Origin: Deltaproteobacteria bacterium
GTDB lineage: Bacteria; Desulfobacterota; B13-G15; RBG-16-54-18
DNA: 64,000 nt
Assembly: GCA_016927065.1 (NCBI GenBank)
Contig: JAFGNJ010000027.1
Span: 36,506 to 100,505 of the forward strand
Direction of reading: 5' to 3'
Shown here: piece after piece, positions 2 to 18,881 of the stretch
Layout: each line of letters begins with the position of its first letter
Numbering within the stretch: the first letter of the stretch is position 1
Position numbers and translations under genes: made by a program
Notes under the pieces: model-generated
What the model saw: only the letters and a program-made list of their open reading frames with translations
The model's database searches: none
Told to the model about the DNA's origin: nothing

Positions 2-373
2 ATGATGACCGCACTCGGCGGCCCGTCTATCTCCTGCTCTATGTATACCTCTTTCGGCGACGCCGTCAGGGGCTTTTCAAAGAACTTTTACCCCGGTTTC
101 AATACCACACCGTCGCGCTTTTCCTGTATGATCGCCATGTTTGCCTTTTTTTATCTCTTGCCGTTTTTTCTCGTTTTTTTCTATTCCGGAGTTCTTGTCC
201 CACTGGGATTGATATGTCTGCAACGCCTCCTCCTTGCCTTGACCGATCGGCAGAATCCCATTACCAATTGCCTCTTGCATCCCATTCAGATGGTCTTCAT
301 GGTTGTGGTAGGGGTCAATTCGATGCGTGTGGCTGAGGGCAAAAAGATCGTATGGAAGGGCCGCCGGGTATAA
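2..373 (+). CDS. C-terminal fragment of a membrane protein, truncated at window start; possibly the end of a glycosyltransferase
   Basis: ORF open to the window edge; hydrophobic helices (FAFFYLLPFFLVFFYSGVLVPLGLI); no catalytic motif visible in the fragment. Confidence 0.3.
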   Translation: MMTALGGPSISCSMYTSFGDAVRGFSKNFYPGFNTTPSRFSCMIAMFAFFYLLPFFLVFFYSGVLVPLGLICLQRLLLALTDRQNPITNCLLHPIQMVFMVVVGVNSMRVAEGKKIVWKGRRV

Positions 374-999
374 TCGCCAGGCTCAATTTTTTCAGAGGTC
401 TCGCTATCATCTATGCGGTCGGTCTTGCTGGGCACCTCATAACCCCGCTCAGGCCGCTAATGCTTGCAATAACGCCCTATGTCCTTTTGATAACGGGCGG
501 GATTGTCCTTGTGCCGGTGATCAAGGAGAGGAATTGGCGTGTGTTCGCGTGGTTATTGGGGGCAGGGGTGATCACCTTCTTCATTGAGGTCGTAGGCGTT
601 TCCACGGGGAAGATCTTTGGAAGCTATTCTTATACTGATGTCTTGGGCGCGCGGGTCTTGGGGGTCCCCCCCCTCATCGGTTTCAACTGGATGCTTGTGC
701 TCTTCGGCTGCGGCAACCTGGCACAGATCATTTCCCAACGTGCCGCCCTCCGGATCGCCATAGCCATCCTCTGTGCGCCCCTTTTTGATTATGTAATGGA
801 GCCCGTTGCCGTTGCCTTCAACTATTGGGGGTGGCAGGGAGGAGCACCGCCCATGCAGAACTACATCATATGGGGTTTGATCTCCGGTGTTATGTGCAGC
901 TTGTATCTCTTGTTCCGGTGCAACACGCAAAAGGCATTGCCGGCGTATTACCTCGCCATTCAGCTCGCTTATTTTTTTATACTCAAATTTATCGTGTGA
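352..999 (+). CDS. polytopic integral membrane protein, possibly carotenoid/isoprenoid-lipid associated (DUF422-like)
   Basis: 215 aa, about 6 predicted hydrophobic helices, no soluble domain; lies beside isoprenoid genes; family assignment from memory only. Confidence 0.45.
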   Translation: MEGPPGIIARLNFFRGLAIIYAVGLAGHLITPLRPLMLAITPYVLLITGGIVLVPVIKERNWRVFAWLLGAGVITFFIEVVGVSTGKIFGSYSYTDVLGARVLGVPPLIGFNWMLVLFGCGNLAQIISQRAALRIAIAILCAPLFDYVMEPVAVAFNYWGWQGGAPPMQNYIIWGLISGVMCSLYLLFRCNTQKALPAYYLAIQLAYFFILKFIV

Positions 1000-1075: not shown

Positions 1076-2158
1076 TCAATAGCCTCGCTTAGCCAGGAAC
1101 TGCAAAAGGTGATGCAAGACGGGGTGTGAAAAGTTGATGGCATCGGCAATGGACTCAGCCCTATGTAATTGTTGATCAATAAATTCTTGCGCCTCAGCCA
1201 CGATCCCCGCCTCTACAACGGCGTCTCTGGCCGCAGGAAATTCCGGCAGGGCAAAGAGGTCCTGTGGAAGTTGAGGGTTTGCCGTGGCCTTCTGGTGATA
1301 GCCGATGGTGAGGTAGGTCTTTTTCTTTCGCCGCCAGTCGCTCCCGACATCTTTACCGAGGGCCTTTTCATCCGCCATGAAATCCAAGAGATCGTCCCTG
1401 ACTTGGAAGGCCAAACCGATGTGTTCCCCCATTTCTTTTAATGCCCCTAATGCATCAGTGGTGGACGCGCTGGAGAGGTATCCAAATTCGAAGGCCAAGG
1501 AAATAAGGCGCGCCGTCTTTTGAGAGATCATGAGGAGATAGTCATCCAGGTTAACATCATCTCTCGTCTCAAATGCTTTATCCCGCGCCTGACCTTCACA
1601 CACCACATACATGCCATCGGTAAAGGCATTAATCATGGTCATGAGTTGGGGTGAAGAGGAGGTTAACAGCTTCCGGTAGGCCAAGGCAATCATGGCATCA
1701 CCCGACAATACGGCAGTGCCGAGATCCCATTTTGCATGCACTGTTTCACATCCCCGCCTAAAACGATCGTCGTCCATGATATCATCATGGACGAGGGTGA
1801 AGTCATGCAGGACCTCGATGGCCACGGCAGAAGGAATGGCATTTTCGTAACTATTATAAAAGTGTTCCGCAGTAATTAAAGTGATCAACGGTCGAATCCG
1901 TTTTCCCGGCAAGGTGAAAAAATATGCAATGGGATCACGCAGTAATTCAACTTCTGTGAAGTTGTCGAATTGCCGCAATTCCATATCAACTCTTTCTTGA
2001 TAGGGGCGCAATATTTTCTTAAATGATTCCATCACTTGCTCATACAATGAAACAGTACCCCTCTTGATCCTAGAAGACAAGATCGGCGTGTGACAAAGGG
2101 CATGACAGCATATTCTATATGTTTTGTCAATAAAAACGCTATCTATATTTACTTTCAC
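1076..2158 (-). CDS. polyprenyl diphosphate synthase (trans-isoprenyl diphosphate synthase family)
   Basis: First Asp-rich motif LVHDDIMDDD and second motif FQVRDDLLD; true start probably the internal Met of MESFKKIL near 2032. Confidence 0.9.
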   Translation of the reverse strand: MKVNIDSVFIDKTYRICCHALCHTPILSSRIKRGTVSLYEQVMESFKKILRPYQERVDMELRQFDNFTEVELLRDPIAYFFTLPGKRIRPLITLITAEHFYNSYENAIPSAVAIEVLHDFTLVHDDIMDDDRFRRGCETVHAKWDLGTAVLSGDAMIALAYRKLLTSSSPQLMTMINAFTDGMYVVCEGQARDKAFETRDDVNLDDYLLMISQKTARLISLAFEFGYLSSASTTDALGALKEMGEHIGLAFQVRDDLLDFMADEKALGKDVGSDWRRKKKTYLTIGYHQKATANPQLPQDLFALPEFPAARDAVVEAGIVAEAQEFIDQQLHRAESIADAINFSHPVLHHLLQFLAKRGY

Positions 2159-2248
2159 GGCAGTTGGTTTGTCAAGACAGTTGTAATTCGCTGTGATCTT
2201 CCCTACAATAATTTAGCTACATGAGTACCACGCAAAGGAGAGGATGGT

Positions 2249-3982
2249 TTGAAGGTTAAGTTGGCAAGGACAGCGGGTTTCTGCATGGGGGTCCGACGCG
2301 CCATGGAGATAGTCCTAACGGAGATCAATAAAGGGACCTCTCCCCTGTATACCTACGGTCCTCTTATTCATAACCAACAGGTATTAGGGCTGCTCGAAAC
2401 CAAAGGTGTGAAGGCAGTCGATGATATCACGGATCTGGATGAAGGGACCATCATCATTCGGGCGCACGGTATCCCTCCGGCAGAGCGCCGTCGCATCAAG
2501 TCTTCCGGCCTGCGGATCAGGGATGCCACCTGCCCTCGTGTGGCCCGGGTACAGGCGATTATCAGCTCTTACACCAAGCAGGGATATCACGCCGTCATCG
2601 TGGGTGACAAGGATCACCCAGAGGTCAAGGGCCTGATGGGCTATGCCAACGGCAGGGCACACGCCATTAAGAGTGCGAAGGGAGCTTCTCAACTGCCTCG
2701 CATGCGAAAGGTTTTTGTAGTCGCCCAGACCACCCAGGCAGGCCCGACCTTTCGCGAAGTGGTGAAGGCCATCAAGGGTCGATTCCCAGACGCACTTGTC
2801 TTTGATACGATTTGCGACGCCACCTATCGTCGCCAGCGGGAGGTCAGGGCGTTATCGGATCATGTCGACGGCGTGGTGGTGGTGGGGGGCTATAACAGCG
2901 GGAATACCCAACGGCTCGCCCAGATCTCACAGGAAGCGGGGATGCCGACCTTCCACGTGGAGACCGAGGAGGAACTCGACAGTGAGAAATTGCGGGATAT
3001 GGAGGTGATAGGGGTTACGGCAGGTGCCTCGACCCCCACCTGGATGATCAAGAGCGTCGTCAGAGAGATAGAGGGCATACAGAGCCGTACCGAGACCTTG
3101 CTCGGCCGTTGGGTCATCAAGGCCGCTCGTTTCTTGTTGCTGAGCAATGTGGTCACGGCAGGAGGGGCCTTTGCCCTTGCCTATGCGGCCGCCCTCCTCG
3201 CAGGGAGAGATACCGGCATTATCTATCCATCGTTAGCCTTTTTTTATATTTACGCCATGCACGTACTAAATCGTTTTTTGGATAAGGGTGCCAGCGCTTA
3301 TAATGATCCTGAGGTAGCTACCTTTTACAGGAAATATCGGACCTTTTTAGTCGTATCGGGAGTTGTCTCTATTATAATGGCTCTTACCCTTTCCTGGTAT
3401 CTGGGTCTGTGGGTTTTTGTCGCCATGGCAGGGTTAAACCTCCTGGGGATCGTATACAGTGTACCCCTTGTGCCGGCAGGCATCAGGCATCTGTGGCCAT
3501 ACACCCGCATTAAGGACTTTCCTGGATCCAAGACCCTCTCGGAGGCCCTGGCTTGGGGGGTGGTGATCGCCCTCCTGCCCCTGTTAGGCCCCCGTCACGT
3601 TGCACTACTGAGTTCATTAGCAGCATTCATCTTCGTATTTTCCCTTACCTATATCCGGTCGGCCATCTTCGACATCTTTCAAGAGCAAGGGGACCTCATC
3701 GTAGGGGCAGAGACCCTGCCCATTATGCTGGGAGAGGAGAGGACCCTGCTGTTGTTGAAGGGTGTCGTCGTGTTTGCGGGGTTGTTCCTCATCGCAGCCC
3801 CCCTCTCCGGTGCGGTTGGCCCTTTTGCATATCTCCTGATTCTTACGGTCATCTCTTCGGCCTTCTGCCTCCTGGCATATGAGAAGCGGTGGCTTTTCCC
3901 CGGCAGGCGCTTTGAGGCCTTGGTGGAAGGCAATTTCTTCCTAGCGGGACTTTTGGGGTTGATATGGCAGATTCTTACATAA
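2249..3982 (+). CDS. ispH: IspH (4-hydroxy-3-methylbut-2-enyl diphosphate reductase) fused to a C-terminal UbiA-like polytopic prenyltransferase domain
   Basis: N-terminus MKVKLARTAGFCMGVRRA is typical IspH; after about residue 285 the protein becomes polytopic with Asp-containing motifs (HVLNRFLDKGASAYND, DIFQEQGD). Confidence 0.85.
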   Translation: MKVKLARTAGFCMGVRRAMEIVLTEINKGTSPLYTYGPLIHNQQVLGLLETKGVKAVDDITDLDEGTIIIRAHGIPPAERRRIKSSGLRIRDATCPRVARVQAIISSYTKQGYHAVIVGDKDHPEVKGLMGYANGRAHAIKSAKGASQLPRMRKVFVVAQTTQAGPTFREVVKAIKGRFPDALVFDTICDATYRRQREVRALSDHVDGVVVVGGYNSGNTQRLAQISQEAGMPTFHVETEEELDSEKLRDMEVIGVTAGASTPTWMIKSVVREIEGIQSRTETLLGRWVIKAARFLLLSNVVTAGGAFALAYAAALLAGRDTGIIYPSLAFFYIYAMHVLNRFLDKGASAYNDPEVATFYRKYRTFLVVSGVVSIIMALTLSWYLGLWVFVAMAGLNLLGIVYSVPLVPAGIRHLWPYTRIKDFPGSKTLSEALAWGVVIALLPLLGPRHVALLSSLAAFIFVFSLTYIRSAIFDIFQEQGDLIVGAETLPIMLGEERTLLLLKGVVVFAGLFLIAAPLSGAVGPFAYLLILTVISSAFCLLAYEKRWLFPGRRFEALVEGNFFLAGLLGLIWQILT

Positions 3983-4057
3983 CTGGCCCATGGATATAGC
4001 TGCCGTTATTTATGGTATTTTTTTATCTTTCAATTTAGACAGGGTAGAAGATAGCAG

Positions 4058-4330
4058 ATGAATGCATTGATAGATATGCTGCAAAACAATGACGTCCTGT
4101 TGGGATTTGCCAGCGTCGAGATAAAATTTGCCTATCTCGGATCGCTCTTCGCCACCTTGCTCTGCGTGATCTATGGTCTGATGATGTGGAACACGTGCAG
4201 AAAAGCTGCACGGGTACGGAGATCAGTGAAGACGATACGGGTGAAACAAAGAAGACCATCTCGAAGGAGACCAGCGAAGACGGTACGGGTCAGACAAATA
4301 AGACCATCCCGGCGGAGACGGCAACGCTAA
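4058..4330 (+). CDS. small ORF with hydrophobic N-terminus and Arg-rich repeat tail; coding status uncertain
   Basis: ATG ORF whose C-terminal half is encoded by an imperfect ~45-nt tandem DNA repeat; same DNA read in the symporter frame gives an acidic repeat. Confidence 0.2.
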   Translation: MNALIDMLQNNDVLLGFASVEIKFAYLGSLFATLLCVIYGLMMWNTCRKAARVRRSVKTIRVKQRRPSRRRPAKTVRVRQIRPSRRRRQR

Positions 4331-4344
4331 GAGAGGGCAGAGAG

Positions 4345-5955
4345 ATGTTTTTTTATTATAATATTATAATCGCTATCGTATACCTTATCGTCTTGGTCTC
4401 CCTTGCATACAAGGTGCATACGAGGACCAGCACGGCCTCCGATAATACGATCGCCGCCAGAGAGATGCGCCCCAGTGTGATGGCCTTATCGTATGGGGCG
4501 GGATTTCTCGGTACGACGGCGGTTATTGGATTTGGAGGGGCTGCGGCATTGTTTGGGTGTTCCCTCTTGTGGTTGAGTTTTTTCACTATCCTTGTGGGGA
4601 TTTTTATAGCCTTCGTTTTTTTCGGCAGGCGGACCCGACGCATGGGGATGGCCCTCAATGCCCATACCTTTCCGGAAATTTTGGGTGAGCGGTATCAGTC
4701 TCGTTTCATTCAGGGTTTTGCCGGGATGGTGGTCTTTGTCTTTATCCCCATCTATGCAGCCGCTATCCTCATCGGGGTCGCACGGTTCATCGAGGTTTTC
4801 CTCCATATACCCTATGTCGTGGCTCTAGGAACGTTCTCATTTTTTTTAGTTCTGTACGTTATCCTGGGCGGGTTTAAGGCCGTGTTGTATACCGATGCCT
4901 TTCAGGGTGTTGTCATGTTTGTCCTGATGGTGATCTTTTGCTACTTGACCTACCATATCCTTGGTGGAATCATTCCAGCTCATCAGGCCCTGACTGATAT
5001 CGCCCCGCTGGTCCCTGAACACTTGGTCCGCGAAGGTCATCTGGGTTGGACGGCAGGGCTGAGAATAGGGAGCCCCTTGTGGTGGACTGCGTGGTCCAGC
5101 CTCATCTACGGTGTGGGGATCGGTATTCTCGCTCAACCCCAGCTCGTTGAGAGATTTTTGAGGTCCCCTTCGGATCGAGATTTGAACCGTTCCGTATTGG
5201 TGGGAGGGATTTTTCTTTTGGCCATGATCGGGGTCCCTCTCACCGTCGGCCCCTTGACCAATAGTATTTTTATGGAAAGGTTTGGCTACATTGCTATAGT
5301 CATGGCCGAAGGAAATATGGATAAGATCATTCCGCTCTATATCGATACCGTTATGCCCTGGTGGTTTGGCATTGTCTTTCTGATGGGGATCTTGACGGCC
5401 TCTCTGGCTGCCTTAAGCTCGCAATTGCATGTAGGAGGCGCTTCTTTTGGGAGGGATTTTTACGGCAAGGCCATGGGGCTGCATGGGGCGATGGAGGGTT
5501 TTACCACTAAGTTGGGGATAACCATGACCATTATCGCAACTATTCTTTGGGGGCTTGTGTTGCCTCCGAGCGTGATCGTTCGCGCTACCGCCTTCTTTTT
5601 TGGACTTTGCGCCGCCTCTTTTTTACCGCTCTATTTTTTTGGCCTCTATTGGAAGGGGGTTACCAAGGCAGGGGGTATCGCAAGCATGGTGGGGGGGATC
5701 GTGGTAAGTTTTATCTGGATGATTTTTTTTCACGACCAGGAATCAACGATCATCGGGCTTTGCCGAGTCCTCTTCGGCGCGTCAAACCTGGTGGCGGACT
5801 TTCCGCCTCACTCCTGGATATGGCAGTTGCAGTATGTGGACCCCGTTATCGTCGCCCTTCCCCTCTCCTGTGTCCTCTGCTTACTGGTCAGCTCTCTGAC
5901 GCGGAAGATGCCCAGGGGCCACCTCAACCTCTGTTTTAAGTATATATCAAAATAA
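4345..5955 (+). CDS. sodium:solute symporter family transporter
   Basis: Polytopic protein with SSS-like N-terminal TM pattern; ATG at 4345 preceded by AGAGGG Shine-Dalgarno; longest ORF begins at GTG 4186. Confidence 0.85.
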   Translation: MFFYYNIIIAIVYLIVLVSLAYKVHTRTSTASDNTIAAREMRPSVMALSYGAGFLGTTAVIGFGGAAALFGCSLLWLSFFTILVGIFIAFVFFGRRTRRMGMALNAHTFPEILGERYQSRFIQGFAGMVVFVFIPIYAAAILIGVARFIEVFLHIPYVVALGTFSFFLVLYVILGGFKAVLYTDAFQGVVMFVLMVIFCYLTYHILGGIIPAHQALTDIAPLVPEHLVREGHLGWTAGLRIGSPLWWTAWSSLIYGVGIGILAQPQLVERFLRSPSDRDLNRSVLVGGIFLLAMIGVPLTVGPLTNSIFMERFGYIAIVMAEGNMDKIIPLYIDTVMPWWFGIVFLMGILTASLAALSSQLHVGGASFGRDFYGKAMGLHGAMEGFTTKLGITMTIIATILWGLVLPPSVIVRATAFFFGLCAASFLPLYFFGLYWKGVTKAGGIASMVGGIVVSFIWMIFFHDQESTIIGLCRVLFGASNLVADFPPHSWIWQLQYVDPVIVALPLSCVLCLLVSSLTRKMPRGHLNLCFKYISK

Positions 5956-6058
5956 AGGGTTCAAGCGTATTGTCATAGAGAAAGTCATTAGATCTTCAGC
6001 CCTTGCATATCTGAGATGAATCAATTGTCTCTTCGCGATGTTTTGGAAGAGCCCCTTC

Positions 6059-7054
6059 TCATTTCCTTTTCATCACCCTACCTTTTGATGCCTTCCTTGT
6101 TATCCTCCTCTTTTTCCTCTTGGGGATTTTTTTGAGTGATTCGGCTTCGACGAATATTTTCTTCACAGCGGACACTTGCTCTTGGATGCCCCGTTCTACC
6201 TTATCGATGGCCTCCTCGACCTGATCCGTGTTGAGGCCGTCCACAAAGTTGACGTCGATGTTGACCAGAATTTCCTCAGGTCCCAGGTGCATGGTGAGTA
6301 GATTTACAACTTCCTTTACCTCTGGGACAGTGTTGATGGCCGCCCTGATTTTTCTCAAATCTCCCTGTGATACCCCCTCCCCGATCAGGAGGCTCTTGGT
6401 TTCTAAGAAGAGTACAAAGGCTACCAGCGCAAGGATAATCCCAATGACAATAGAAGCCACGCCATCGAAGACGGGATTTTTGGTGAGTGATGAGAGAAGG
6501 ATACCCCCCAAGGCTATAGAGAGCCCGAGAATGGCGGCGGAATCCTCCATAAAGATGATGAAGATGGCCGGTGTCTTTGAATCACGGATAGTCCTAAAGA
6601 CCCCCCGTCTTTTAATGGTCCCCTTCAATGTGCGGAAGGCAATCCGCCAGGAATAACTATCAAAGAAGAAGGAGAGAACAATTACTACATACCCCCATCC
6701 TGCGTGCCTGAGAGGTTCGGGGTGGAGGATTTTTGTGATCCCTTCATGAACGGAGAAGACGGCCCCAATGATGAAGACGGAGAGAGAGACGACAAAGGCC
6801 CAGAAGTATCGCTCCATGCCGTAGCCAAAGGGGTGGTTTCGGTCAGGGGGGCGGGTGCTCAGCCGTAACCCCAGCAGGAGGAAGGCCTGGTTGCTCGTAT
6901 CTGCCAGGGAGTGAAAGCCCTCGGCCAACAGGGCGGTGCTGTTAATGAAGATGGCGACGGTGAACTTCATGAGGGCGATGAAGATATTGGCCGTCAAGGC
7001 CACTCTTACCGCCCGTTTTGTCCTGGAAGTCGCTGTTGTTAAATCCTCTAACAC
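6059..7054 (-). CDS. cation diffusion facilitator family divalent-metal efflux transporter
   Basis: CDF signature region FHSLADTSNQAFLLLGLRLSTRPPDRNHPFGYGMERYF, six TM helices, cytoplasmic C-terminal domain. Confidence 0.85.
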   Translation of the reverse strand: MLEDLTTATSRTKRAVRVALTANIFIALMKFTVAIFINSTALLAEGFHSLADTSNQAFLLLGLRLSTRPPDRNHPFGYGMERYFWAFVVSLSVFIIGAVFSVHEGITKILHPEPLRHAGWGYVVIVLSFFFDSYSWRIAFRTLKGTIKRRGVFRTIRDSKTPAIFIIFMEDSAAILGLSIALGGILLSSLTKNPVFDGVASIVIGIILALVAFVLFLETKSLLIGEGVSQGDLRKIRAAINTVPEVKEVVNLLTMHLGPEEILVNIDVNFVDGLNTDQVEEAIDKVERGIQEQVSAVKKIFVEAESLKKIPKRKKRRITRKASKGRVMKRK

Positions 7055-7062
7055 CTGGTTTT

Positions 7063-8493
7063 TCAGAGTTCCTCCACGGTGATCAGATTGGTGGTCCCCG
7101 GCAAATCGACCGGGGTCCCTGCCGTAACCACCACCCGCTGACCCTTAGTCACCCATTCCTGCTGGAGGGCGGCGGTGATCCCCTTGCCCACGATCTCATC
7201 GACGTTGGTGAATTCGGGCACCAGGATGGGGTGCACACCCCAGGAGAGGATGAGTTGCCTGACAGTGGTGGGTTGGGGACTAAAGGCGAGGATGGGATAG
7301 CGGGGTCGATATCGGGAGACCAAACGGGCTGTCCTGCCTGTACGAGTGGGGGTAATAATCGCAGCCACTCCCAGGTCCTCGGCCAACTGGCAGGCGGCAT
7401 GGCTCATAGAATCGGCGATCTCCCCCTTCTGATACGGGTCGGTGGGGAGGAAGGCTGCATGGGGGAAACTTCGCTCCGTCGCCTCGGCGATCATCACCAT
7501 GAACCGCACCGCCTCGACAGGATATCTCCCCATGGCGGTCTCTTCCGATAGCATGATGGCATCGGTGCCGTCGAAGATGGCGTTGGCCACATCCGATGCC
7601 TCAGCTCTGGTGGGCCGCGGAGTATCCACCATTGACCGCAGCATCTGGGTGGCGGTGATAACGGGTTTCCCAAGGCTATTGGCCCGCTTGATCAGGTCTT
7701 TTTGCACCAGAGGGACCTGCTCCAGAGGAATCTCAACACCCAGATCACCTCTGGCCACCATGATGCCGTCGGCCTCGTTCATGATCTCTTCAATGTGTTG
7801 TAAGGCCTCGTGTCGTTCTATTTTTGCGATGATGGGAATATCGGCATGATGAGAATTCAAGACCTCCCTGGCATCTTGAATATCCTCACCCCCCCTGACG
7901 TAGGAAAGTGCGACGAAGTCTACCTCCGCCTGTACACCGAACAGGAGATCGTCCTTATCTTTGTCCGTGAGGACCTTTGTCCGCAATTCTCCACTGGGGA
8001 TATTGATGCCTTTATGGGAACTGAGGTCTCCTCCCACCACCACCTGACACGTAATCTCAGGGGGCTGAATCGCAACTACCGTGACCTCGAGAGTTCCATC
8101 CGCCAGCAGGATTGAGTTTCCCTCGCTGACGTCGTTTGTCAGACCAGGGTAGGTGACCGATAGCTTCTGTGCATTGCCCATGATTTGTTCTGTAGTCAAG
8201 GTGACGGTTGTGCCCGTTTCCAGATGTACGGTTCCTCCCTCGATCTCCCCCACTCGTACCTTTCCCCCACCGAGGTCTTGGAGGATGGCCACCGGTCTCC
8301 CAGCCTTTTCGCTTAGTCGCTTCAACAGAGTGATTTTTTCGCCATGGTCCCGACGATCTCCATGGGAGAAGTTGAGACGAGCCACATCCATGCCTTGTCT
8401 GATCATCTCCTCCATGATGACGGGATTACTGCTGGCTGGCCCGATGGTACAAACTATTTTTGTCTTTCTTATTTTCTTGCTTGGTTCCTTCAC
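7063..8493 (-). CDS. pyk: pyruvate kinase
   Basis: KIVCTIGPAS N-terminus, MVARGDLGVEIP motif, full-length 476 aa; GTG start. Confidence 0.95.
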   Translation of the reverse strand: MKEPSKKIRKTKIVCTIGPASSNPVIMEEMIRQGMDVARLNFSHGDRRDHGEKITLLKRLSEKAGRPVAILQDLGGGKVRVGEIEGGTVHLETGTTVTLTTEQIMGNAQKLSVTYPGLTNDVSEGNSILLADGTLEVTVVAIQPPEITCQVVVGGDLSSHKGINIPSGELRTKVLTDKDKDDLLFGVQAEVDFVALSYVRGGEDIQDAREVLNSHHADIPIIAKIERHEALQHIEEIMNEADGIMVARGDLGVEIPLEQVPLVQKDLIKRANSLGKPVITATQMLRSMVDTPRPTRAEASDVANAIFDGTDAIMLSEETAMGRYPVEAVRFMVMIAEATERSFPHAAFLPTDPYQKGEIADSMSHAACQLAEDLGVAAIITPTRTGRTARLVSRYRPRYPILAFSPQPTTVRQLILSWGVHPILVPEFTNVDEIVGKGITAALQQEWVTKGQRVVVTAGTPVDLPGTTNLITVEEL

Positions 8494-8627
8494 TCGACGA
8501 TCCCCTTTTTTTCTTGGCTCCAGGAGTATTTTTCGTCATCTGGACATAGCAATACTTTTTCGCCGTCCGCCAACGTTTTTTGTATGTTAAGCGCCGTTAT
8601 AAAAAATGGACGTATACAATGGACACA

Positions 8628-8660
8628 AAAGGGCCTATCTACTATAGGCCCTTTCTTTTT
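8628..8660 (-). terminator. intrinsic terminator hairpin (11-bp stem AAAGGGCCTAT/ATAGGCCCTTT, 5-nt loop) flanked by T-runs on both strands
   Basis: Perfect inverted repeat read directly; lies about 40 nt downstream of the minus-strand small-protein gene ending at 8697. Confidence 0.55.
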
Positions 8661-8696
8661 ACAAACTGGTTGTCCTATCCTCCTTATGGTGTAACG

Positions 8697-8951
8697 CTAC
8701 TGATCTTCTCCTTCACTCGGCTCCTTTTTTGGCGTGGTCTTCACCTCTTTAGCCCTCAGACCCGTCTCTAATTTGTCAAGGACGTCGGCTGTCTTCTCCC
8801 GCAGGGAATTTGTTGCCTTGATAATGGCATCACCGATCTGGCTGAGGACTTCGGTTTGTTTCTTCAGATCTCCGAGCCCCCCCGCCTTTTGAAAGGCCAG
8901 AAAGGCCAATATTAAGGCGACGATAGCAACGAACAACGCGAAACCTGCCAT
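8697..8951 (-). CDS. small membrane-anchored protein (N-terminal TM helix, charged coiled-coil tail)
   Basis: MAGFALFVAIVALILAFLAF hydrophobic start then charged helical region. Confidence 0.5.
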   Translation of the reverse strand: MAGFALFVAIVALILAFLAFQKAGGLGDLKKQTEVLSQIGDAIIKATNSLREKTADVLDKLETGLRAKEVKTTPKKEPSEGEDQ

Positions 8952-8953
8952 AC

Positions 8954-9199
8954 CTATTCACCTCCCCCTTTTTTGTCATTTTTGACGTGTCTTTTTTTCT
9001 TCTGTTTGTTGAATTGATTTATCGTGGCGATAATGTAACCCAGGATGATCCCCGCCAGAAAAGACCCGATGGTGATCAATGCCTTGGATAGCTCGGTTTC
9101 CCAAAAAAGGAATTTTACCCCTACCGGCTGGGTATTGTATAAGACATAGACGACGATGAGACAGGTGAGTACGATCAGAGTGATAACGCGCCCCGACAT
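8954..9199 (-). CDS. LapA-like (DUF1049) small inner-membrane protein
   Basis: 81 aa, two TM helices and Lys-rich C-terminus; abuts the downstream small gene. Confidence 0.5.
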   Translation of the reverse strand: MSGRVITLIVLTCLIVVYVLYNTQPVGVKFLFWETELSKALITIGSFLAGIILGYIIATINQFNKQKKKRHVKNDKKGGGE

Positions 9200-9205
9200 A
9201 GCTAG

Positions 9206-10522
9206 CTATCCCCCTTTCTTTCCCTTGCTTGAAGAGAAGACTCGCTTATATATTACAGTAACATACTTGAGATGGCTATTCAAGTCGAAAACCCCTTGGA
9301 TTTCTTTCACGCTCAGCATAGCGGTGATATCCTTGTCATTCTGGACTAATTGTAGAAAATCCGCTTGCTCTCTCCACGCCCGCATGGCATTACGCTGCAC
9401 CCAGTGGTAGGCATCCCCTCGCGCAACACCCTTCCTGATGAGGGCCAAGAGGAGCTGCTGAGAGGCAATAAGCCCCTTGGTCAGATCGAGGTTCTTCTTC
9501 ATCCGGTCGGGATATACCACCAGTCCCTTGATGATATGGGTGAGCCGAGCAAGCATGTAATCCACGAGGATGGTGCTGTCCGGGGCGATGACTCGCTCCA
9601 CCGAGGAGTGGCTGATGTCCCGTTCGTGCCAGAGGGGGATGTTCTCCAGAGAAGCGAGGGAATTGGCCCTTACCAGTCGGGCCAGGCCGGAGAGATTCTC
9701 CGACCCGATAGGGTTTCTCTTGTGGGGCATGGCTGAAGAGCCCTTTTGACCTTCGGCGAATGGTTCCTCGGCCTCCATGACCTCGGTGCGTTGCAGGTGG
9801 CGGATCTCCACGGCGAACTTTTCTATTGAGGAAGCGATCAACGCCAGGGCCGTGAAGAATTCGGCATGCCTATCCCGTTGGATAATCTGTGAAGAAACGG
9901 GGTCGGGGGTGAGCCCCAGTTTTTTACAGACGTATGCCTCCACAGCCGGAGGGGCGTTGGCAAAGGTGCCCACGGCACCCGATAGTTTGCCCACGCTGAT
10001 GGCTGCGATGGCCCGTTCCATGCGCCCTCGGTTGCGGTGCATCTCCTCGTACCAGAGGGCCATCTTGAGGCCGAAGGTGATGGGCTCGGCGTGCACGCCA
10101 TGGGTCCGGCCGATCATGGCCGTCTCTTTATATTTAAAGGCCTTTTCCTTGATCGCCTCCATGAGGTTATTGATGTCTTCAATGATGATTCGTCCCGCCT
10201 CCCGGAGTCTCAGTGAGAGGGCGGTGTCGACGATATCGTAGGAGGTGAGCCCGAAATGGATATACCTTCCCGCATCGCCCACTGTTTCTTCCAATTGGCC
10301 CACGAAAGCGGCAACGTCGTGTTTGGTCTCGTGCTCGATTTCTTCAATGCGTTGAGTGTCGATGTGCGCCCGTTTTTTGATCTGTTGCACGGCCTCAGAA
10401 GGGATCTCTCCCAGCTCGGCCCAGGCCTCGCAGGCCAAGATCTCCACCTTAAGCCAGGTCTGATATTTATGCTCCTCGCTCCAGAGCGCCCCCATCTTTT
10501 CTCTCGTGTATCGCGAGATCAC
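9206..10522 (-). CDS. purB: adenylosuccinate lyase
   Basis: Fumarate-lyase signature SSAMPHKRNP and TSYDIVDTA motif; 438 aa. Confidence 0.95.
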   Translation of the reverse strand: MISRYTREKMGALWSEEHKYQTWLKVEILACEAWAELGEIPSEAVQQIKKRAHIDTQRIEEIEHETKHDVAAFVGQLEETVGDAGRYIHFGLTSYDIVDTALSLRLREAGRIIIEDINNLMEAIKEKAFKYKETAMIGRTHGVHAEPITFGLKMALWYEEMHRNRGRMERAIAAISVGKLSGAVGTFANAPPAVEAYVCKKLGLTPDPVSSQIIQRDRHAEFFTALALIASSIEKFAVEIRHLQRTEVMEAEEPFAEGQKGSSAMPHKRNPIGSENLSGLARLVRANSLASLENIPLWHERDISHSSVERVIAPDSTILVDYMLARLTHIIKGLVVYPDRMKKNLDLTKGLIASQQLLLALIRKGVARGDAYHWVQRNAMRAWREQADFLQLVQNDKDITAMLSVKEIQGVFDLNSHLKYVTVIYKRVFSSSKGKKGG

Positions 10523-10626
10523 CGTTATCGCTCCTTATCTGTTGATTACTTAACTCTAAGGGAGAAGGGGAGAGTTGTCAATGTGAAAATAGAAAGCGCC
10601 AAGGCATGCCGTTTTATACGGTAACC

Positions 10627-10655
10627 TTGACACCCCTTTGAGGCCCTGTTAGATT
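10627..10655 (+). promoter_or_regulatory. sigma70-like promoter (TTGACA - 17 nt - TAGATT) upstream of the GalT-like operon
   Basis: Hexamers and spacing read directly; about 40 nt upstream of the ATG at 10693. Confidence 0.35.
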
Positions 10656-10692
10656 GTTTTCATTGTGCTGAATCTTTCAGAGGAGTTGCAGA

Positions 10693-11718
10693 ATGGGAAT
10701 AGCCTTTAAGGGACGGTTCCAAAACGCGAAAATCTTGGATCCGAAAACGGGATATGAAGAAACAACACTAACCTTGGAAACGAGGTGGGACCCCCTGACG
10801 AAGCGGTCGGTAAGGGTCCTCGATCTCCCCATTAAAAAGCTTGCTACCATGGATATTGATGAAATTCTGAAAAGGGCAGAGGATATTCCGTGTCCCTTTT
10901 GCCCCGATGCTTTGGACGAGGTCACCCCCCGTTTTCCGAATGATTTCATCGAGGGGGGGAGGCTGTGCTTTGGCGAGGTCTGTATTATCCCCAATAGACT
11001 TCCCTTTGATCGATACTGTGCCGTCGTTGTGCTCACTCATCAGCACTATGTTCCTCTCGTCGATTTTACCGAGGAGCAGCTTTTTAACGGGTTTTCCACC
11101 GCCTGTGTCTTCCTGCGCAGGCTCGTAGAGGTGGATTCCTCGGTACGCTTCTTTTCCATCAACTGGAATTATCTCCCCATGTCGGGGGGGAGCATTATCC
11201 ATCCCCACCTTCAAATCATTGGGGGAGATCTCCCGACACACTACCAAGGAGAGATGATCCGGGGGGCGAGGGAATATCGCCAGCAATGGGAAGCTTCTTT
11301 TTGGGATGAGTTAATCGCTAAGGAAAAGGAACTTGGAGAGCGTTATATTGGTGCTGTCGGCAATACGGTGTGGCTGGCGAGCTATGCGCCGTTTGGCTTG
11401 GGTGATACTATGGCCGTTTTTCGTGAACGGACTTCCCTTCTCAATCTCACTGATCAGGATCTGAGAGATTTTACCCAAGGTCTGCTCAAGGTTTTCCGGT
11501 ATTATCAGGAATTCAATTACTATAGTTTCAACCTTAGTCTCTATTCTGGTGAATACGGCGGTGATGACTCCTTTTGGGTAAACGCCAGGATGCTGGCAAG
11601 GAGGTTATTGCCTCCGGTGGGGGCGAGCGATGTCAGTTACTTTGAGAAGTTGCACGGGGAGCCGATCGCATACAAAAGACCTGAACGGCAGTGCGAGGAG
11701 ATGCGAGGGTATTTCTAG
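10693..11718 (+). CDS. GalT-like HIT-superfamily nucleotidyltransferase (galactose-1-phosphate uridylyltransferase family)
   Basis: CPFC zinc-site motif and HPH active-site motif (SIIHPHLQIIGG). Confidence 0.7.
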   Translation: MGIAFKGRFQNAKILDPKTGYEETTLTLETRWDPLTKRSVRVLDLPIKKLATMDIDEILKRAEDIPCPFCPDALDEVTPRFPNDFIEGGRLCFGEVCIIPNRLPFDRYCAVVVLTHQHYVPLVDFTEEQLFNGFSTACVFLRRLVEVDSSVRFFSINWNYLPMSGGSIIHPHLQIIGGDLPTHYQGEMIRGAREYRQQWEASFWDELIAKEKELGERYIGAVGNTVWLASYAPFGLGDTMAVFRERTSLLNLTDQDLRDFTQGLLKVFRYYQEFNYYSFNLSLYSGEYGGDDSFWVNARMLARRLLPPVGASDVSYFEKLHGEPIAYKRPERQCEEMRGYF

Positions 11719-11919
11719 AGACTGTTTTTAGATGCCTGTTGAAAAGTGTTCCGTGGAACAGCAGCCCTCAATATCCGTAGCATCGTGGCGTTCTTCACTA
11801 CCTACGGCCTTGAGTTTAGATGAATTCCCCTCTCCTCGAAACGGCATGACATTGCTGCTGTCAGGGGTGGGGCAAGGACGATCCCTCAGGGGGTTGTTCC
11901 CGTTGCAGGGGAGCGAAAG

Positions 11920-13032
11920 ATGATATTACCCAACGAGGTCTATGTAGATTCCGCTTTGGAGACTCATCCGGTTGTCCATCGGATACGGCAAGGGCTTGAT
12001 CATCTCCCGTGGCATTCCCGAGGCGATCTCGACAGGGTGATTCAGGATGTCCTCTCCTACCAATCGGATCCCTGTGCTGCGGGGAAACAAATTCTCTGTA
12101 TCCGACCTTACCAGGGAAAACTGGTGAAGGATTGCCCTGGGACCATAGGGCACATCTGCTGCGGCTACAAGATCATCAACGTCATGACCAATTGCCCCCT
12201 CGATTGTTCGTACTGCATCCTCCAAACCTATTTGAACAACCCCTGTCTGACACTCTATCCAGAATTCACACGAATTTTCAGTGAAATAGACGAGATCCTG
12301 GATGCGCATCCTCATCGGATCTTTAGGTTTGGCACGGGGGAATTGGGGGACAGCCTGGCCCTCGATGGTATCGTCCGTTTTGCCGATGAGGCCGTCCCCC
12401 TTTTCGCTCGAAAGCTAAACGCGATCTTTGAGATCAAGACCAAGGCCTGTTCAGTGGATCACCTCCTTACCCTGAACCATGGGGGAAGGACCGTGTGCTC
12501 CTGGTCCCTCAATCCACCAACTGTGATAGAAGGAGAAGAGCATAGGGCAGCCTCCCTTGAGGAACGTTTGCGGGCGGCAAGCCGCTGCGCTGATGCGGGG
12601 TATCACGTGGGATTTCACTTTGACCCCCTCATCGCTTATCCGGGATGGGATGATGACTATCGCAGGGTGGTGGACCTCCTCTTTGAGCACATCGAACCCT
12701 GCAGGGCCATCTGGGTGAGTCTCGGTGCACTGCGCTGTTCCACCTCACTGAAACAGGTAGCCCAAGAGCGATTCCCGACCTCGCGTATATTCTCCGGCGA
12801 GTTGATACGGGGCGAGGATGGAAAGTTACGCTACCTCAAGCCCCTCAGGGTAGCGATGTACCGGCATATGGTCTCGTGGCTGAGATCCTATGACGCGGAA
12901 CTCTTTATTTATCTTTGTATGGAGCGGGATGACGTCTGGCAGGAGGTCTTCGGCACCAGCCCGGGGAGCACCGCGGGTCTCAACAGCTGGTTTGAGGAAC
13001 GCGTTCGGCAATTCACCGAAGGTGGACAATGA
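11920..13032 (+). CDS. radical SAM protein, spore photoproduct lyase (SplB) family
   Basis: CPLDCSYC radical SAM cysteine triad (CxxxCxxC) in SplB-like context. Confidence 0.75.
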   Translation: MILPNEVYVDSALETHPVVHRIRQGLDHLPWHSRGDLDRVIQDVLSYQSDPCAAGKQILCIRPYQGKLVKDCPGTIGHICCGYKIINVMTNCPLDCSYCILQTYLNNPCLTLYPEFTRIFSEIDEILDAHPHRIFRFGTGELGDSLALDGIVRFADEAVPLFARKLNAIFEIKTKACSVDHLLTLNHGGRTVCSWSLNPPTVIEGEEHRAASLEERLRAASRCADAGYHVGFHFDPLIAYPGWDDDYRRVVDLLFEHIEPCRAIWVSLGALRCSTSLKQVAQERFPTSRIFSGELIRGEDGKLRYLKPLRVAMYRHMVSWLRSYDAELFIYLCMERDDVWQEVFGTSPGSTAGLNSWFEERVRQFTEGGQ

Positions 13033-14003
13033 CCACAGCGGTGGGCCTCATCTCAGGGGGACTCGACAGCATCCTGGCTGCACGACTCATCCTCGAACAG
13101 GGGATTAAGATTCAAGGGGTGTCGTTCATCACCCCTTTTTTCAATTCCAAAGGCGCGGAGCGGGCAGCCCAGGCAGTGGGTATTCCCCTCCAGGTCCTGG
13201 ATATTACCGAGCCCCACCTTGCCATGTTGCGTAAACCCAAACATGGATACGGCAACAACATGAACCCTTGCATAGACTGTCATATACTCATGCTCAAAGA
13301 GGCGGGGAGGGTGATGGAAGAGGGAGGATATGATTTCCTCTTTACCGGCGAGGTGCTAGGACAGCGCCCCATGTCCCAGAACAAGGCTTCCTTGCGGGTT
13401 GTAGAGCGGGAGTCGGGGTATGAGGGGTTGGTCCTGCGTCCGCTCAGCGCCCAGCTCCTTCCCGAGACCATGCCGGAGCACGCAGGAAAGGTCGACAGGG
13501 AACAGCTTGTGGGGATCAAAGGGCGCTCCCGGAAGGAGCAGATGGAGTTGGCCAAGCGATACCATATTACGGAGTATCTCTCACCTGCCGGAGGGTGCCT
13601 CCTTACCGATCCTATCTTTTCCCGTCGCCTGGGGGATCTCTTCCGGCGTCCTGAGCCAGTCCAGATCAGGGACATAGAACTCCTGAAGATCGGCCGGCAC
13701 CTACGCCTTTCCCCTGCGGTGAAGCTGATCGTGGGGAGGCACGCACAGGACAATGAAAGGATATCGACGATGGTTATTCCCAAAGATGATCTCCTCAAGG
13801 TGGAAAAATACCCTGGCCCCCTCTGCCTCATCCCGTATGGCGGTGCATCAGAGGATATCGCACAGGCCGCCTCCATTTGTCTGAGATACAGTGATGCCCC
13901 CTCGGATGAAGAAGTGACGGTGTTGCGAAGAAGGGGAGGGGAGGAATGCCGGATAAAGGCGCGATCGTGCCCTGTGTCCTTACCTTCAGAGTTGATGATT
14001 TAG
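13029..14003 (+). CDS. PP-loop ATP pyrophosphatase, MnmA/ThiI-like tRNA thiolation family
   Basis: PP-loop SGGLDS near N-terminus, NPCIDCH cysteine motif; 4-nt overlap with upstream radical SAM gene. Confidence 0.7.
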   Translation: MTTAVGLISGGLDSILAARLILEQGIKIQGVSFITPFFNSKGAERAAQAVGIPLQVLDITEPHLAMLRKPKHGYGNNMNPCIDCHILMLKEAGRVMEEGGYDFLFTGEVLGQRPMSQNKASLRVVERESGYEGLVLRPLSAQLLPETMPEHAGKVDREQLVGIKGRSRKEQMELAKRYHITEYLSPAGGCLLTDPIFSRRLGDLFRRPEPVQIRDIELLKIGRHLRLSPAVKLIVGRHAQDNERISTMVIPKDDLLKVEKYPGPLCLIPYGGASEDIAQAASICLRYSDAPSDEEVTVLRRRGGEECRIKARSCPVSLPSELMI

Positions 14004-14071
14004 AAAAAAGATTCAACATATTTTTTTTGAGTCGTAACATACAGGATAAGTTAAAAGGGAGGTGTAGCAGC

Positions 14072-15406
14072 ATGGGGAAACAGTCTATTCTCGGATATGC
14101 TTTGATGATCTTTTTTGTAGCCGTTCTTTGCCTCCCTGCCTCTTCCGCAGGCAGCGATCCGTGTTGTCCGCTCAACGAGGAACTGAGATATCTCCTCCAG
14201 CCTCCATCAGAGGTCCGGTTCTCTTATCAAGTCCGTCATGAGACCTTTTTTTCCGCTTCTTTGGGAAAGGAGAAGAATTTTTTTCTCATCCTCCCTCCCG
14301 AATTTGATCCCCAGTCAGCTGAGCGATACCCTCTCCTTATACTTTTACATGGGTACGATTTTCACCGCAACGGAGGGGGGACGGTGTGCGATCCCAAGGC
14401 CGCCCTTGATATCCTGTGCCGCGAGGCGGAGGAGGAATATCACTGGCTCCTCTGGGAGGAGATCGCCCCTATTGCCGCAGCCATGATGGCAGAACGGAAT
14501 AAGACTTATAAGGACCTCAAGGAGGATTTGCAGGCTCGCTTCGAAGAACTTACGCACTATGGTGGCCTGGGAGCACAGGATTCCAGCCCCGCTGATATCG
14601 CCGTCTCATTGGTTGAGCACAACCTCCACCCTTTCGGCGGCATCGATGATTCCTTTCATCCTATCCGCAAGATGATCATCCTGCTCCCTGATGGCGATAA
14701 CAGCTTTTATACGGACGAGGACGAAAGAAAAGGTCTCTTTCCCCCTACCAGCAACAGAGGCGCATGCGATGTCTTCTACCCAGAGGAGTGCCTGAGGATT
14801 ATAAACGTTCCCCGTCGTTACATGCGGCCCGGTGCGTTGGGGAGATACGAGAGTTATATTATTGAGTTGATGGAGTACCTCCGCAATAAATCCTCTCTGA
14901 AAGGCAAACTCTTTCCACCTCCGCATACAGGGATCGGCGGTTTCTCTATGGGGGGATTCGGCGCCTTGCAGATCGCCCTGCGGCATTCTGAATTGTTCCG
15001 CTCGGTGAGCAGCCAGAGCGGGTTGGTCGATATAGAGCTTCTCACGAACAAGGTAGTTCTTAAGACTACAATGCCCGAGTTCTTGGAGGTCTTTGGTTAT
15101 CTTGCACCTTTGGCCCTTCCGAGCAGCTCGACAATCAATGAGGCCTATCGGAGGGCCCACAACCCGGTGCGCCTGATCAGAGAAGGCAAGGGAAAAGAGT
15201 TATGGGCAAAAATTTATTTCGACTATGGGTCAGGGGAGCGTCTGTCGTCCATCATGGATGGGAACAAGAGATTAGAAGAGGTCCTCGGCGTCAACGGTCG
15301 GATGATCTCAGTACAATCCTATAATGGAAAAGCGGGACACAATTACCTCTTTTGGCGGTCGAGGTTGGGGAACGTGCTCGAACACCACTCGCGGTGTTTG
15401 AGGTAA
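14072..15406 (+). CDS. secreted alpha/beta-hydrolase fold esterase
   Basis: Signal peptide MGKQSILGYALMIFFVAVLCLPASSA; nucleophile elbow GFSMGGFGA; longest ORF from 13946 overlaps upstream gene. Confidence 0.7.
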   Translation: MGKQSILGYALMIFFVAVLCLPASSAGSDPCCPLNEELRYLLQPPSEVRFSYQVRHETFFSASLGKEKNFFLILPPEFDPQSAERYPLLILLHGYDFHRNGGGTVCDPKAALDILCREAEEEYHWLLWEEIAPIAAAMMAERNKTYKDLKEDLQARFEELTHYGGLGAQDSSPADIAVSLVEHNLHPFGGIDDSFHPIRKMIILLPDGDNSFYTDEDERKGLFPPTSNRGACDVFYPEECLRIINVPRRYMRPGALGRYESYIIELMEYLRNKSSLKGKLFPPPHTGIGGFSMGGFGALQIALRHSELFRSVSSQSGLVDIELLTNKVVLKTTMPEFLEVFGYLAPLALPSSSTINEAYRRAHNPVRLIREGKGKELWAKIYFDYGSGERLSSIMDGNKRLEEVLGVNGRMISVQSYNGKAGHNYLFWRSRLGNVLEHHSRCLR

Positions 15407-15410
15407 TATC

Positions 15411-16079
15411 TTATCTCTTTTTATACTCCTTTCTGATTTGCTTCATATCCTCCCACACATGCTTCTTGAACTGTGGATTTCGCAGGAGGAAGGCGGGGTG
15501 GTAGGTGGGCATGAGTTTGGCGCCGTGGTACGAGTGAAAACGTCCCCTGAGGGCGGATATTTTTTCTTCGGTCTCCAAGAGAGTCTGGGCCGCGAAGGTT
15601 CCTAAAGCGCAGATGATCTTGGGTCGGATGACTTCCAGCTGCTTGAGGAGAAAGGGGAGACAGGCTTGAATCTCATCGGGTCGGGGATCGCGGTTGTTTG
15701 GGGGGCGGCATTTCACGATGTTGGCAATGTATACCTCCTCCCTCGTCAGGTCGATGGCCTCGATGATGCGGGTGAGAAGTTCACCGGCCCTGCCGACAAA
15801 GGGCTTGCCCTGCAGATCCTCGTCTCTGCCAGGCCCCTCTCCAACAAAGACGAGGCGGGCGTGGGGGGTTCCTTCGCCGAAGACCAGATGGTTTCTCCCC
15901 TCATGGAGCCGGCACCTCGTGCACTCTCCTATTTCCCGTCTTACTACATTGAGATCCAGCACGGGTCTTTTTTTCTTTTGAGAAAGGAGGGTATTGATCC
16001 CCAGTTCCTTCTGATATCTCAGATGCCCCTTTATCTGGGTGACGATCTGCCTTAATTCGCGATGGATGTCTTCTTTCAT
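15411..16079 (-). CDS. uracil-DNA glycosylase, family 4
   Basis: Motifs GEGPGRDEDLQGKPFVGRAG and CRPPNNR; Cys cluster CTRC. Confidence 0.9.
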   Translation of the reverse strand: MKEDIHRELRQIVTQIKGHLRYQKELGINTLLSQKKKRPVLDLNVVRREIGECTRCRLHEGRNHLVFGEGTPHARLVFVGEGPGRDEDLQGKPFVGRAGELLTRIIEAIDLTREEVYIANIVKCRPPNNRDPRPDEIQACLPFLLKQLEVIRPKIICALGTFAAQTLLETEEKISALRGRFHSYHGAKLMPTYHPAFLLRNPQFKKHVWEDMKQIRKEYKKR

Positions 16080-16083
16080 CTTT

Positions 16084-18851: not shown

Positions 18852-18881
18852 TACTAACACAAACGGAAAGGGGATAGATAT

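Follow-up and report, generated by a model that had tools for sequence, protein, structure and literature searches.

An IspH-UbiA fusion protein in a Deltaproteobacteria genome and its place in a published class of sulfate-reducer hybrids

We analysed a 64,000-nucleotide stretch of a Deltaproteobacteria metagenome-assembled genome (MAG; GenBank assembly GCA_016927065.1, contig JAFGNJ010000027.1, positions 36,506 to 100,505 of the forward strand; hereafter the window, numbered from its first letter) and found that one gene on its plus strand, at 2249..3982, encodes a protein in which IspH is fused to a membrane domain of the UbiA prenyltransferase fold. The fusion is real, its domains are those first described, and it has been known since 2015. 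In our estimate, which lies slightly above even chance, the protein would be a membrane-anchored IspH, probably a housekeeping enzyme, that is joined to an active, divergent UbiA-superfamily transferase of an unnamed acceptor. The fusion class is a textbook-style "Rosetta stone" link between the last step of isoprenoid-precursor synthesis and a membrane prenyltransferase, and it marks a UbiA subfamily of unassigned substrate in environmentally dominant anaerobes.

The first-pass annotation, made from the letters alone, had described a single open reading frame (ORF) of 577 aa joining IspH to a UbiA-like domain, and this description stands. The ORF is continuous (577 aa plus stop) and holds both Pfam domains, LYTB at residues 3–274 (E 1.4e-91) and UbiA at residues 310–544 (34.7 bits). 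Around the domain junction (about 3074–3148) the reading frame shows neither a stop nor a frame change, and the junction is conserved in relatives. [quoted passage not shown] It is followed by an interdomain linker of 25 aa (residues 276–300; 3074..3148) with a predicted helix at 284–298, and then by the UbiA-fold membrane domain (residues 301–577; 3149..3979), which is identified by PF01040, AlphaFold2 (AF2) modelling, Foldseek and a profile match to the structure 6m31. In the AF2 model of the full-length protein (mean predicted local distance difference test, pLDDT, 85.1; predicted template-modelling score, pTM, 0.78), the linker is confident, with pLDDT values of 78–89 over residues 261–300. 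The only low-confidence stretches are residues 346–348 and 480–488, both in acidic-motif loops; in the crystal structures of UbiA enzymes the cap loops are reportedly mobile as well.

The TTG start codon is preceded by a Shine-Dalgarno sequence, AAGGAGAGG (2235..2243, plus strand), whose AAGGAG core ends 8 nt before it. Because TTG is the sole start that takes in Cys12 of the G-F-C-M-G-V motif, we regard it as correct. Among 120 close relatives, 51 (P0002, P0008 and P0025 among them) are only 559–567 aa long, and the eight such entries examined all begin at Met13 and thus lack the cluster ligand Cys12; the short entries should begin 12 codons further upstream, at a TTG, GTG or ATG. Start sites seem to have been miscalled systematically in the IspH-UbiA family, and our analysis supplies a correction for the many database entries that start at Met13, without the first cluster cysteine. 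Further upstream of the window gene, in the divergent intergenic region, lies a sigma-70-like promoter match, TTGTAA-17-TACAAT (2181..2209, plus strand); it is a consensus match only, and promoter matches in this region are as numerous as expected from shuffled sequence.

How widespread is the fusion? An identical protein (P0001) is present in NCBI under the name "IspH", on a 159.5-kb Deltaproteobacteria MAG contig. Both Pfam domains are also carried by at least 120 clusters formed at 90% identity, which stem from independent JGI, ENA, NCBI and Logan assemblies; they are 60–100% identical to the window protein and 559–580 aa long, with one exception of 460 aa. When only the C-terminal 293 residues were used in an exhaustive HMMER search, 910 representatives at 50% clustering were returned, and in nearly all full-length representatives the match falls at residues ~290–580 of a ~575–585-aa protein. 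None of these 910 representatives was a convincing unfused member of this UbiA clade: of the 14 "short" ones, most have their first residue within the IspH tail ("VTAGASTPNW…"), and one opens at base 3 of its contig. Since most short matches are such fragments, the clade is essentially fusion-only. A scan with restrictive seed peptides also found relatives in 211 species-representative genomes, the best 80 of which are titled almost all Thermodesulfobacteriota, Desulfobacteraceae, Desulfatiglandales or NaphS2.

These data bear directly on the possibility that two genes were joined by an assembly or frameshift artefact, which is effectively refuted. We found nothing in the window that favours such an artefact; that artefact-like joins do occur in MAGs is illustrated by locus L015, where an 861-aa ORF (1971..4556) places DusB (residues 1–314) in frame with an IspH-UbiA protein minus its first 30 residues. 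Cys12 is among the missing residues, and this join is probably a deletion or assembly error and not a functional triple fusion. By contrast, the two-domain architecture recurs in the same frame and, but for the 460-aa entry, within the narrow length range given above in the 120 best clusters from independent assemblies, it is carried by 211 species genomes, the length of the linker region is conserved, and the class was published independently from isolate genomes (PMC4746011). The stretch from P263 to N300, which runs from the A-G-A-S-T-P loop to the start of the first transmembrane helix and includes the linker, measures exactly 37 residues in 68 of 85 diverse members. In the same 85 members the identities of the two halves to the window protein correlate (r = 0.57), with means of 49% for the IspH half and 33% for the UbiA half, and within the window's clade the ratio of nonsynonymous to synonymous substitution rates (dN/dS) is 0.10–0.15 in both halves. 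Both halves have thus been inherited and selected as one unit. As a side observation, fusions 53–54% identical to the window protein in the C-terminal domain occur in MAGs of unrelated phyla, titled Bacteroidales, Gammaproteobacteria and Anaerolineales (L025, L029 and L030). These are short contigs with a family 2 glycosyltransferase (GT2) gene downstream, as is usual for the family (see below), and, in L025 and L030, a Dus-like gene upstream; their occurrence is most simply explained by binning contamination, horizontal transfer being less likely.

The fusion had been taken for an unrecorded one, which it is not: 47 "IspH-UbiA" Rosetta stone hybrids from sulfate reducers were described by Rao, O'Dowd, Li, Wang and Oldfield (Chem Sci 2015; PMC4746011), together with the same channelling idea. 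These authors assigned the UbiA domain to the CDD subgroup PT_UbiA_5, noted a separate MenA/UbiA gene in the same genomes, and left the role of the fused domain undetermined (PMC4746011). In their proposal, IspH is brought to the membrane by the UbiA domain and provides a high local concentration of isopentenyl diphosphate (IPP) and dimethylallyl diphosphate (DMAPP); they also raised localisation and sensor roles (PMC4746011). We found no later characterisation in the literature, where the term "IspH-UbiA" appears only in Rao et al. and a citing paper; the Lipocone paper and a paper on Nitrospirota quinones proved to have no bearing on the fusion. The window protein is another member of this published class and nothing in it differs in kind. 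As in the published hybrids, an N-terminal IspH and a nine-helix UbiA-like C-terminal domain form one polypeptide, and the hosts are comparable, Desulfobacterales and related sulfate reducers there and a Deltaproteobacteria MAG here. The differences are of scale, 910 representatives and 211 species genomes against 47 sequences, and of motif description, since the published account gives two "DXXXD" repeats (PMC4746011) whereas we read N-x3-D-x7-D and D-x2-Q/D-x3-D. To the published class we add the fusion-only nature of the UbiA clade, a DusB–fusion–GT2 operon, and an occasional adjacency to hopanoid or carotenoid genes.

The N-terminal half matches PF02401 with 307 bits against a cut-off of 24.5, covering profile positions 1–266 of 267, and TIGR00216 (ispH_lytB) with 286 bits against a cut-off of 187.85. 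The cluster-ligand positions Cys12, Cys95 and Cys189 are present, as are the other active-site positions His41, His123, Glu125, Thr161-162, Ser217-Gly-Asn219 and Ser261; we take the roles of the cluster-ligand and substrate-binding residues to be those of their counterparts in E. coli IspH. All of these residues are invariant in 40 relatives. Across the 85 diverse fusions, C95, H41, H123, E125 and the A-G-A-S-T-P loop are invariant, and C12 is found in all 74 whose N-terminus is fully called. With a full-length profile match and every catalytic residue kept, the claim of a complete IspH holds, and the N-terminal half reads as a complete [4Fe-4S] HMBPP reductase, the maker of IPP and DMAPP, which is very probably active. 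Over residues 1–281 the best NCBIfam model is NF000907, the IspH part of the family in which IspH is fused to ribosomal protein S1 (IspH-RPS1; 327 bits), and the IspH half is therefore of the short anaerobe type. The IspH-RPS1 fusions of Clostridia and Fusobacteria (PMC4746011, NF000907) likewise have a short anaerobe-type IspH as the N-terminal partner, but their C-terminal part consists of four to six soluble S1 RNA-binding repeats, unrelated to isoprenoid chemistry, and the whole window protein scores far below the NF000907 cut-off of 624.

The C-terminal half, when modelled alone by AF2, forms an all-helical bundle (pLDDT 82.8, pTM 0.84). Its nine predicted transmembrane helices span residues 301–317, 325–344, 364–385, 387–404, 427–446, 453–479, 496–520, 526–545 and 553–576. 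In a Foldseek search of the PDB the top matches are all to the UbiA superfamily: AfUbiA (4tq4, E 3.8e-6), ApUbiA (4od4, TM-score 0.67), digeranylgeranylglyceryl phosphate (DGGGP) synthase (7bpu/6m31), UBIAD1 and the membrane phosphoribosyltransferase 8j8k. The matches to 4tq4, 4od4, 7bpu and 8djk have probability 1.0, and TM-scores for AfUbiA, ApUbiA and DGGGP synthase are 0.56–0.67. A sequence-profile search of the PDB gave DGGGP synthase 6m31 as its sole match (E 2.3e-6); such a profile search was needed, as a single-sequence PDB search with the C-terminal domain returned bestrophin, which we rejected because these were noise matches only. PF01040 hits are on record for 119 of the 120 listed relatives. 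The polytopic, UbiA-like nature of the domain is thus borne out by PF01040, the AF2 model and Foldseek.

Classification within the superfamily is looser. Among NCBIfam models, the membrane domain matches NF010117 ("prenyltransferase") best, scoring 51.8 bits where the cut-off is 238. Among 22 diverse members, models of the DGGGP synthase (DGGGPS) type match 17–21, MenA 13 and ChlG 11, and across the family the DGGGPS models reach best E-values of 1e-9 to 1e-11, still far below their cut-offs. We rejected membership in DGGGPS itself, given that NF009512, NF009522 and NF009521 yield 13–19 bits against cut-offs of 278–353, and likewise a MenA/UbiA quinone prenyltransferase, the MenA match being weak for the window domain (E 4e-3) and reaching at best E 6e-7 among the 22 diverse members. 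By sequence, the nearest named relatives of the membrane domain are the archaeal DGGGP-synthase-type enzymes, of which it is not a member. It shares the nine-helix fold with the archaeal DGGGPS/UbiA homologues of known structure (6m31/7bpu, 4tq3-6, 4od4/5), but identity is only 15–18% and those proteins have no IspH fusion. Compared with archaeal DGGGPS, the first motif has four more residues between its acidic positions, and in the window clade Gln replaces the middle Asp of the second. No geranylgeranylglyceryl phosphate (GGGP) synthase gene was found near the fusion.

UbiA enzymes canonically carry a first Asp-rich motif, N-D-x2-D-x3-D, in the loop after the second transmembrane helix, and a second motif in the loop after the sixth, D-x3-D, or D-x2-D-x3-D in the DGGGPS/ChlG type. 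The Asp motifs that the first-pass annotation had called UbiA-like are present as Asp-bearing motifs; the first is not canonical (N-x3-D-x7-D), and the second departs from the canonical form at its middle position (D-x2-Q-x3-D). The first, N341-RFL-D345-KGASAYN-D353-P354 (3269..3310, plus strand), lies where expected, has four extra residues between the acidic positions, and is invariant in the near clade, by which we mean members at least 60% identical to the window protein; residue percentages for the family as a whole are from the 85 diverse fusions. Between the fourth and fifth helices is a family-specific loop motif, K422-D-F-P-G-S427-K428 (3512..3532, plus strand), in which S427 is conserved at 95%, P425 at 93%, and position 428 as K (89%) or R (11%). 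The second motif, D475-IF-Q478-EQG-D482-LIV-G486-A-E488-T489-L-P491 (3671..3721, plus strand), aligns in the profile alignment to the D-x2-D-x-E-G-D…G…P stretch of DGGGPS. Its family consensus is D475-x2-D478-x3-D482…G486-x-E488-T489-x-P491, with D482 at 99% and G486 at 98%. Two features of the membrane domain as a whole emerged: (i) the 11 positions that reach 90% conservation all hold a polar or charged residue, Gly or Pro, with D482, Y403, R470, S427, E488 and T489 at 91–99%; and (ii) among apolar-consensus positions, none of 166 reaches 90%. This pattern looks like that of a conserved active or binding site, unlike that of a generic hydrophobic anchor.

What is the function of the membrane domain? 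IspH must be cytoplasmic, and counting nine helices from a cytoplasmic N-terminus would place the first-motif, K-D-x-P-G-S-K and second-motif loops, all three of them conserved and polar, on the cytoplasmic face, beside IspH. Because its polar loops would thus face IspH, the domain is most likely an active Mg2+-dependent prenyl-diphosphate-binding transferase; we rate catalytic activity of the UbiA half as fairly probable. Such a transferase would link an isoprenoid chain to an acceptor associated with the membrane, and the domain would at the same time hold IspH at the membrane, with C5 units made where they are used. Given that the nearest relatives are of the DGGGPS type, O-prenylation of a hydroxyl-bearing lipid or polar head group would be preferred to quinone-type aromatic prenylation, an acceptor class that we offer as a tentative suggestion at best.

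Alternatively, transferase activity may have been lost and the UbiA-fold domain may only tether IspH to the membrane, near membrane electron donors or prenyl-consuming enzymes, perhaps with a remaining role as a prenyl-diphosphate ligand or sensor. We consider such an anchor or scaffold rather unlikely, and several observations count in its favour or against an active transferase. Both Asp motifs depart from the canonical form. The first is only moderately conserved in the wider family (N341 89%, [DE]345 73%, [DE]353 69%), and the second, in 113 of the 119 members of the near clade, reads D-x2-Q-x3-D, Gln478 taking the place of the middle Asp. PF01040 scores 34.7 bits, barely above its gathering score of 34.2, and every named subfamily model scores well short of its cut-off. 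Across the loci we sampled, no gene of an acceptor pathway is conserved family-wide, the coupling to GT2 is clade-specific and missing at the window locus, and the databases give the partner GT2 no specific name, only generic GT-A matches. In the published work, which itself raised localisation and sensor roles, full-length expression failed and only truncated protein was obtained (PMC4746011).

Other observations speak against a mere anchor. The polar positions D482, Y403, R470, S427, E488 and T489 are the ones conserved at 91–99%, when every apolar position stays below 90%, and dN/dS is as low in the membrane domain as in the IspH half. Of 76 diverse representatives with a parsed motif, 53 have Asp or Glu at the middle position of the second motif, and most of the wider family has the canonical D-x2-D-x3-D. 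Gln478 is a trait shared across the near clade, as opposed to a defect found in the window alone. Finally, a nine-helix enzyme fold would be a costly anchor where one helix suffices. We therefore keep an active, divergent transferase as the preferred reading.

To describe gene neighbourhoods, ORFs were called and clustered without prior labels in 86 loci; the resulting statistics cover members at 49–84% C-terminal identity, more distant branches being sampled singly. In 72 of 85 loci the fusion is directly followed, on its own strand, by a GT2 gene, and in 66 of 79 DusB (TIGR00737, 353 bits, above cut-off) lies directly upstream, its stop overlapping the fusion start by 4 bp in 51 of these 66. 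The GT2 is a soluble GT-A enzyme of ~280–290 aa, translationally coupled to the fusion (L003, L004, L013-L085, L092-L094). The DusB–IspH-UbiA–GT2 operon, usually found near plsY and parAB, is kept at 44% and 36% UbiA-domain identity to the window protein. Where UbiA-domain identity has dropped to 36%, the GT2 still shares 60% identity with that of L056, the UbiA domains of these two lineages each being only about 36–50% identical to that of the window; the GT2 thus looks better conserved than the UbiA domain. Still more divergent members sit among proBA, deoC, thyX or parAB-smr, without GT2. In two of the divergent loci (L087 and L088, 29% UbiA-domain identity), proB-proA precedes the fusion and a convergent LPG_synthase_TM gene (9767..10735, minus strand) follows it, encoding a flippase-like, HpnL-family membrane protein. 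The family-wide core-genome location fits the fusion being the cell's ordinary ispH, as our data suggest; no second ispH was found within the 64-kb window.

In most Desulfobacterales-type genomes, the coupled GT-A glycosyltransferase would act together with the fusion, plausibly to give a glycosylated isoprenoid lipid. A more elaborate scenario is that an order-level radiation of sulfate reducers has the fusion as its only IspH and carries out the last step of the methylerythritol phosphate (MEP) pathway at the membrane, with the UbiA domain and GT2 making an undescribed prenylated, DGGGPS-like ether- or O-linked glycolipid; taken as a whole this is speculative and improbable, and within it the C5 product of the fused IspH may serve directly as a substrate of the UbiA domain. 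The identity of the acceptor could reveal a new isoprenoid lipid, possibly a new sulfate-reducer biomarker, and would also test whether IspH metabolite channelling occurs. The conserved DusB–IspH-UbiA–GT2 operon and the invariant polar residues provide an experimental handle.

Could the UbiA domain and the coupled GT2 instead serve to modify hopanoids or hopanoid precursors? In 9 of 86 loci, HpnB-cluster genes are found no more than four genes away from the fusion. At locus L085 (NaphS2; 8135..20619), the fusion operon runs on directly into a hopanoid cluster that comprises HpnB (387 bits, over cut-off), a class-III aminotransferase, an HpnN-like RND transporter, BstB-like and BstC-like genes, HpnH (510 bits, over cut-off) and an HpnJ-like radical SAM gene; similar run-on is seen at L045 and L080. 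In most loci, however, hpn genes are not near the fusion, and the window has neither HpnH nor HpnN within its 64 kb. Moreover, ispH itself clusters with shc and hpnH in other bacteria (PMC5462960), so the IspH half is enough to explain the adjacency, which does not implicate the UbiA half. A dedicated hopanoid-pathway enzyme is thus highly improbable. We also note that homologues of the sterol-transporter components BstB and BstC sit inside the L085 hopanoid cluster.

The window locus and its small clade depart from the common operon. DusB and GT2 are absent at the locus in L001, L002, L006-L012 and the window, and the fusion is flanked by a divergent short-chain prenyl synthase gene on one side and by genes for an SSF symporter, a CDF transporter and pyruvate kinase downstream. 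A GT2 gene elsewhere in the window (43627..44538) was rejected as an orthologue of the partner GT2, with 30% identity and a lipopolysaccharide/exopolysaccharide (LPS/EPS) context. The polyprenyl diphosphate synthase (1076..2158, minus strand; PF00348, E 6e-63) lies directly upstream of the fusion, as the first-pass annotation had reported. It scores 210–216 bits with the NCBIfam IdsA and geranylgeranyl diphosphate synthase (GGPPS) models, under their cut-offs. Its first Asp-rich motif (FARM), DDIMD, has no insertion and is preceded by Phe at position -5, and its second (SARM) is DDLLD, features that we take to denote a short-chain (C15/C20-type) enzyme. The longest ORF is 360 aa, against 319 aa (ORF calls) or 319–345 aa (source annotation) in syntenic relatives; the true start is probably Met43 (nt 2032), which leaves a divergent intergenic region of 216 bp with promoter-like matches at 2181-2209 (plus strand) and 2096-2067 (minus strand). 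The synthase accompanies the fusion in every window-clade locus that extends upstream (8 loci and the window). Since it is adjacent in this small clade only, we rejected it as a general partner of the fusion. In the window lineage the fusion has a promoter-like site of its own, beside a short-chain prenyl synthase.

Further upstream, as neighbouring context that need not act with the fusion, the 3′ end of a carotenoid operon occupies 2..999 on the plus strand, where the tail of an HpnB/CruG-like GT2 gene (2..373) overlaps a CruF-like PF04240 gene (352..999; PF04240 E 1.2e-25, TIGR03460 72.7 bits). The context beyond the left edge of the window was read from the syntenic locus L008, which has the same arrangement. 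There the operon (1708..7890) comprises, in this order, CrtID (651 bits, above cut-off), a CrtB/HpnD-like synthase, CrtD (485 bits), a 222-aa protein that matches no family, an HpnB/CruG-like GT2 and the CruF-like gene, with the L008 prenyl synthase adjoining. Such an operon predicts an acyclic, hydroxylated, glycosylated carotenoid and is unusual in a presumably anaerobic Thermodesulfobacteriota MAG.

In haloarchaea the gene set for the C50 carotenoid bacterioruberin consists of CrtD, a UbiA-family elongase and CruF, and the lycopene elongase LyeJ/CrtEb uses DMAPP, an IspH product. By analogy, the UbiA domain could be a LyeJ/CrtEb-like C5 elongase that adds DMAPP from its fused IspH to the carotenoid of the neighbouring operon. 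A C5 donor would make the fusion logical, and, as with LyeJ/CrtEb, a UbiA-family protein here lies near CruF-like and CrtD genes (window and L008): the CruF-like gene and a GT2 are just upstream in the window, and L008 adds CrtID, the CrtB-like synthase, CrtD and a GGPPS-like gene. However, among 86 loci only two, the window and L008, have crt genes next to the fusion, and these genes are absent from the other loci of the same clade, for which reason we rank a LyeJ-like function as very unlikely. The best named matches of the domain are DGGGPS, MenA and ChlG-type enzymes, with no carotenoid elongase and no profile evidence for a lycopene elongase, and the fusion family is far broader than the carotenoid cluster. 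We know of no lycopene elongase fused to IspH.

Three other ORFs in the window have no Pfam match at E <= 1e-5: 30887..32035 and 32035..33669 on the minus strand (382 and 544 aa), which abut each other, and 10693..11718 on the plus strand (341 aa). Downstream of the fusion, a small ORF at 4058..4330 (plus strand), the equivalent of a 73-aa "Symport_access" protein of L001, precedes and overlaps the SSF symporter ORF (4186..5955, plus strand; 589 aa). Since the L001 orthologue of the symporter is 536 aa long, the true start of the symporter is probably downstream of 4186.

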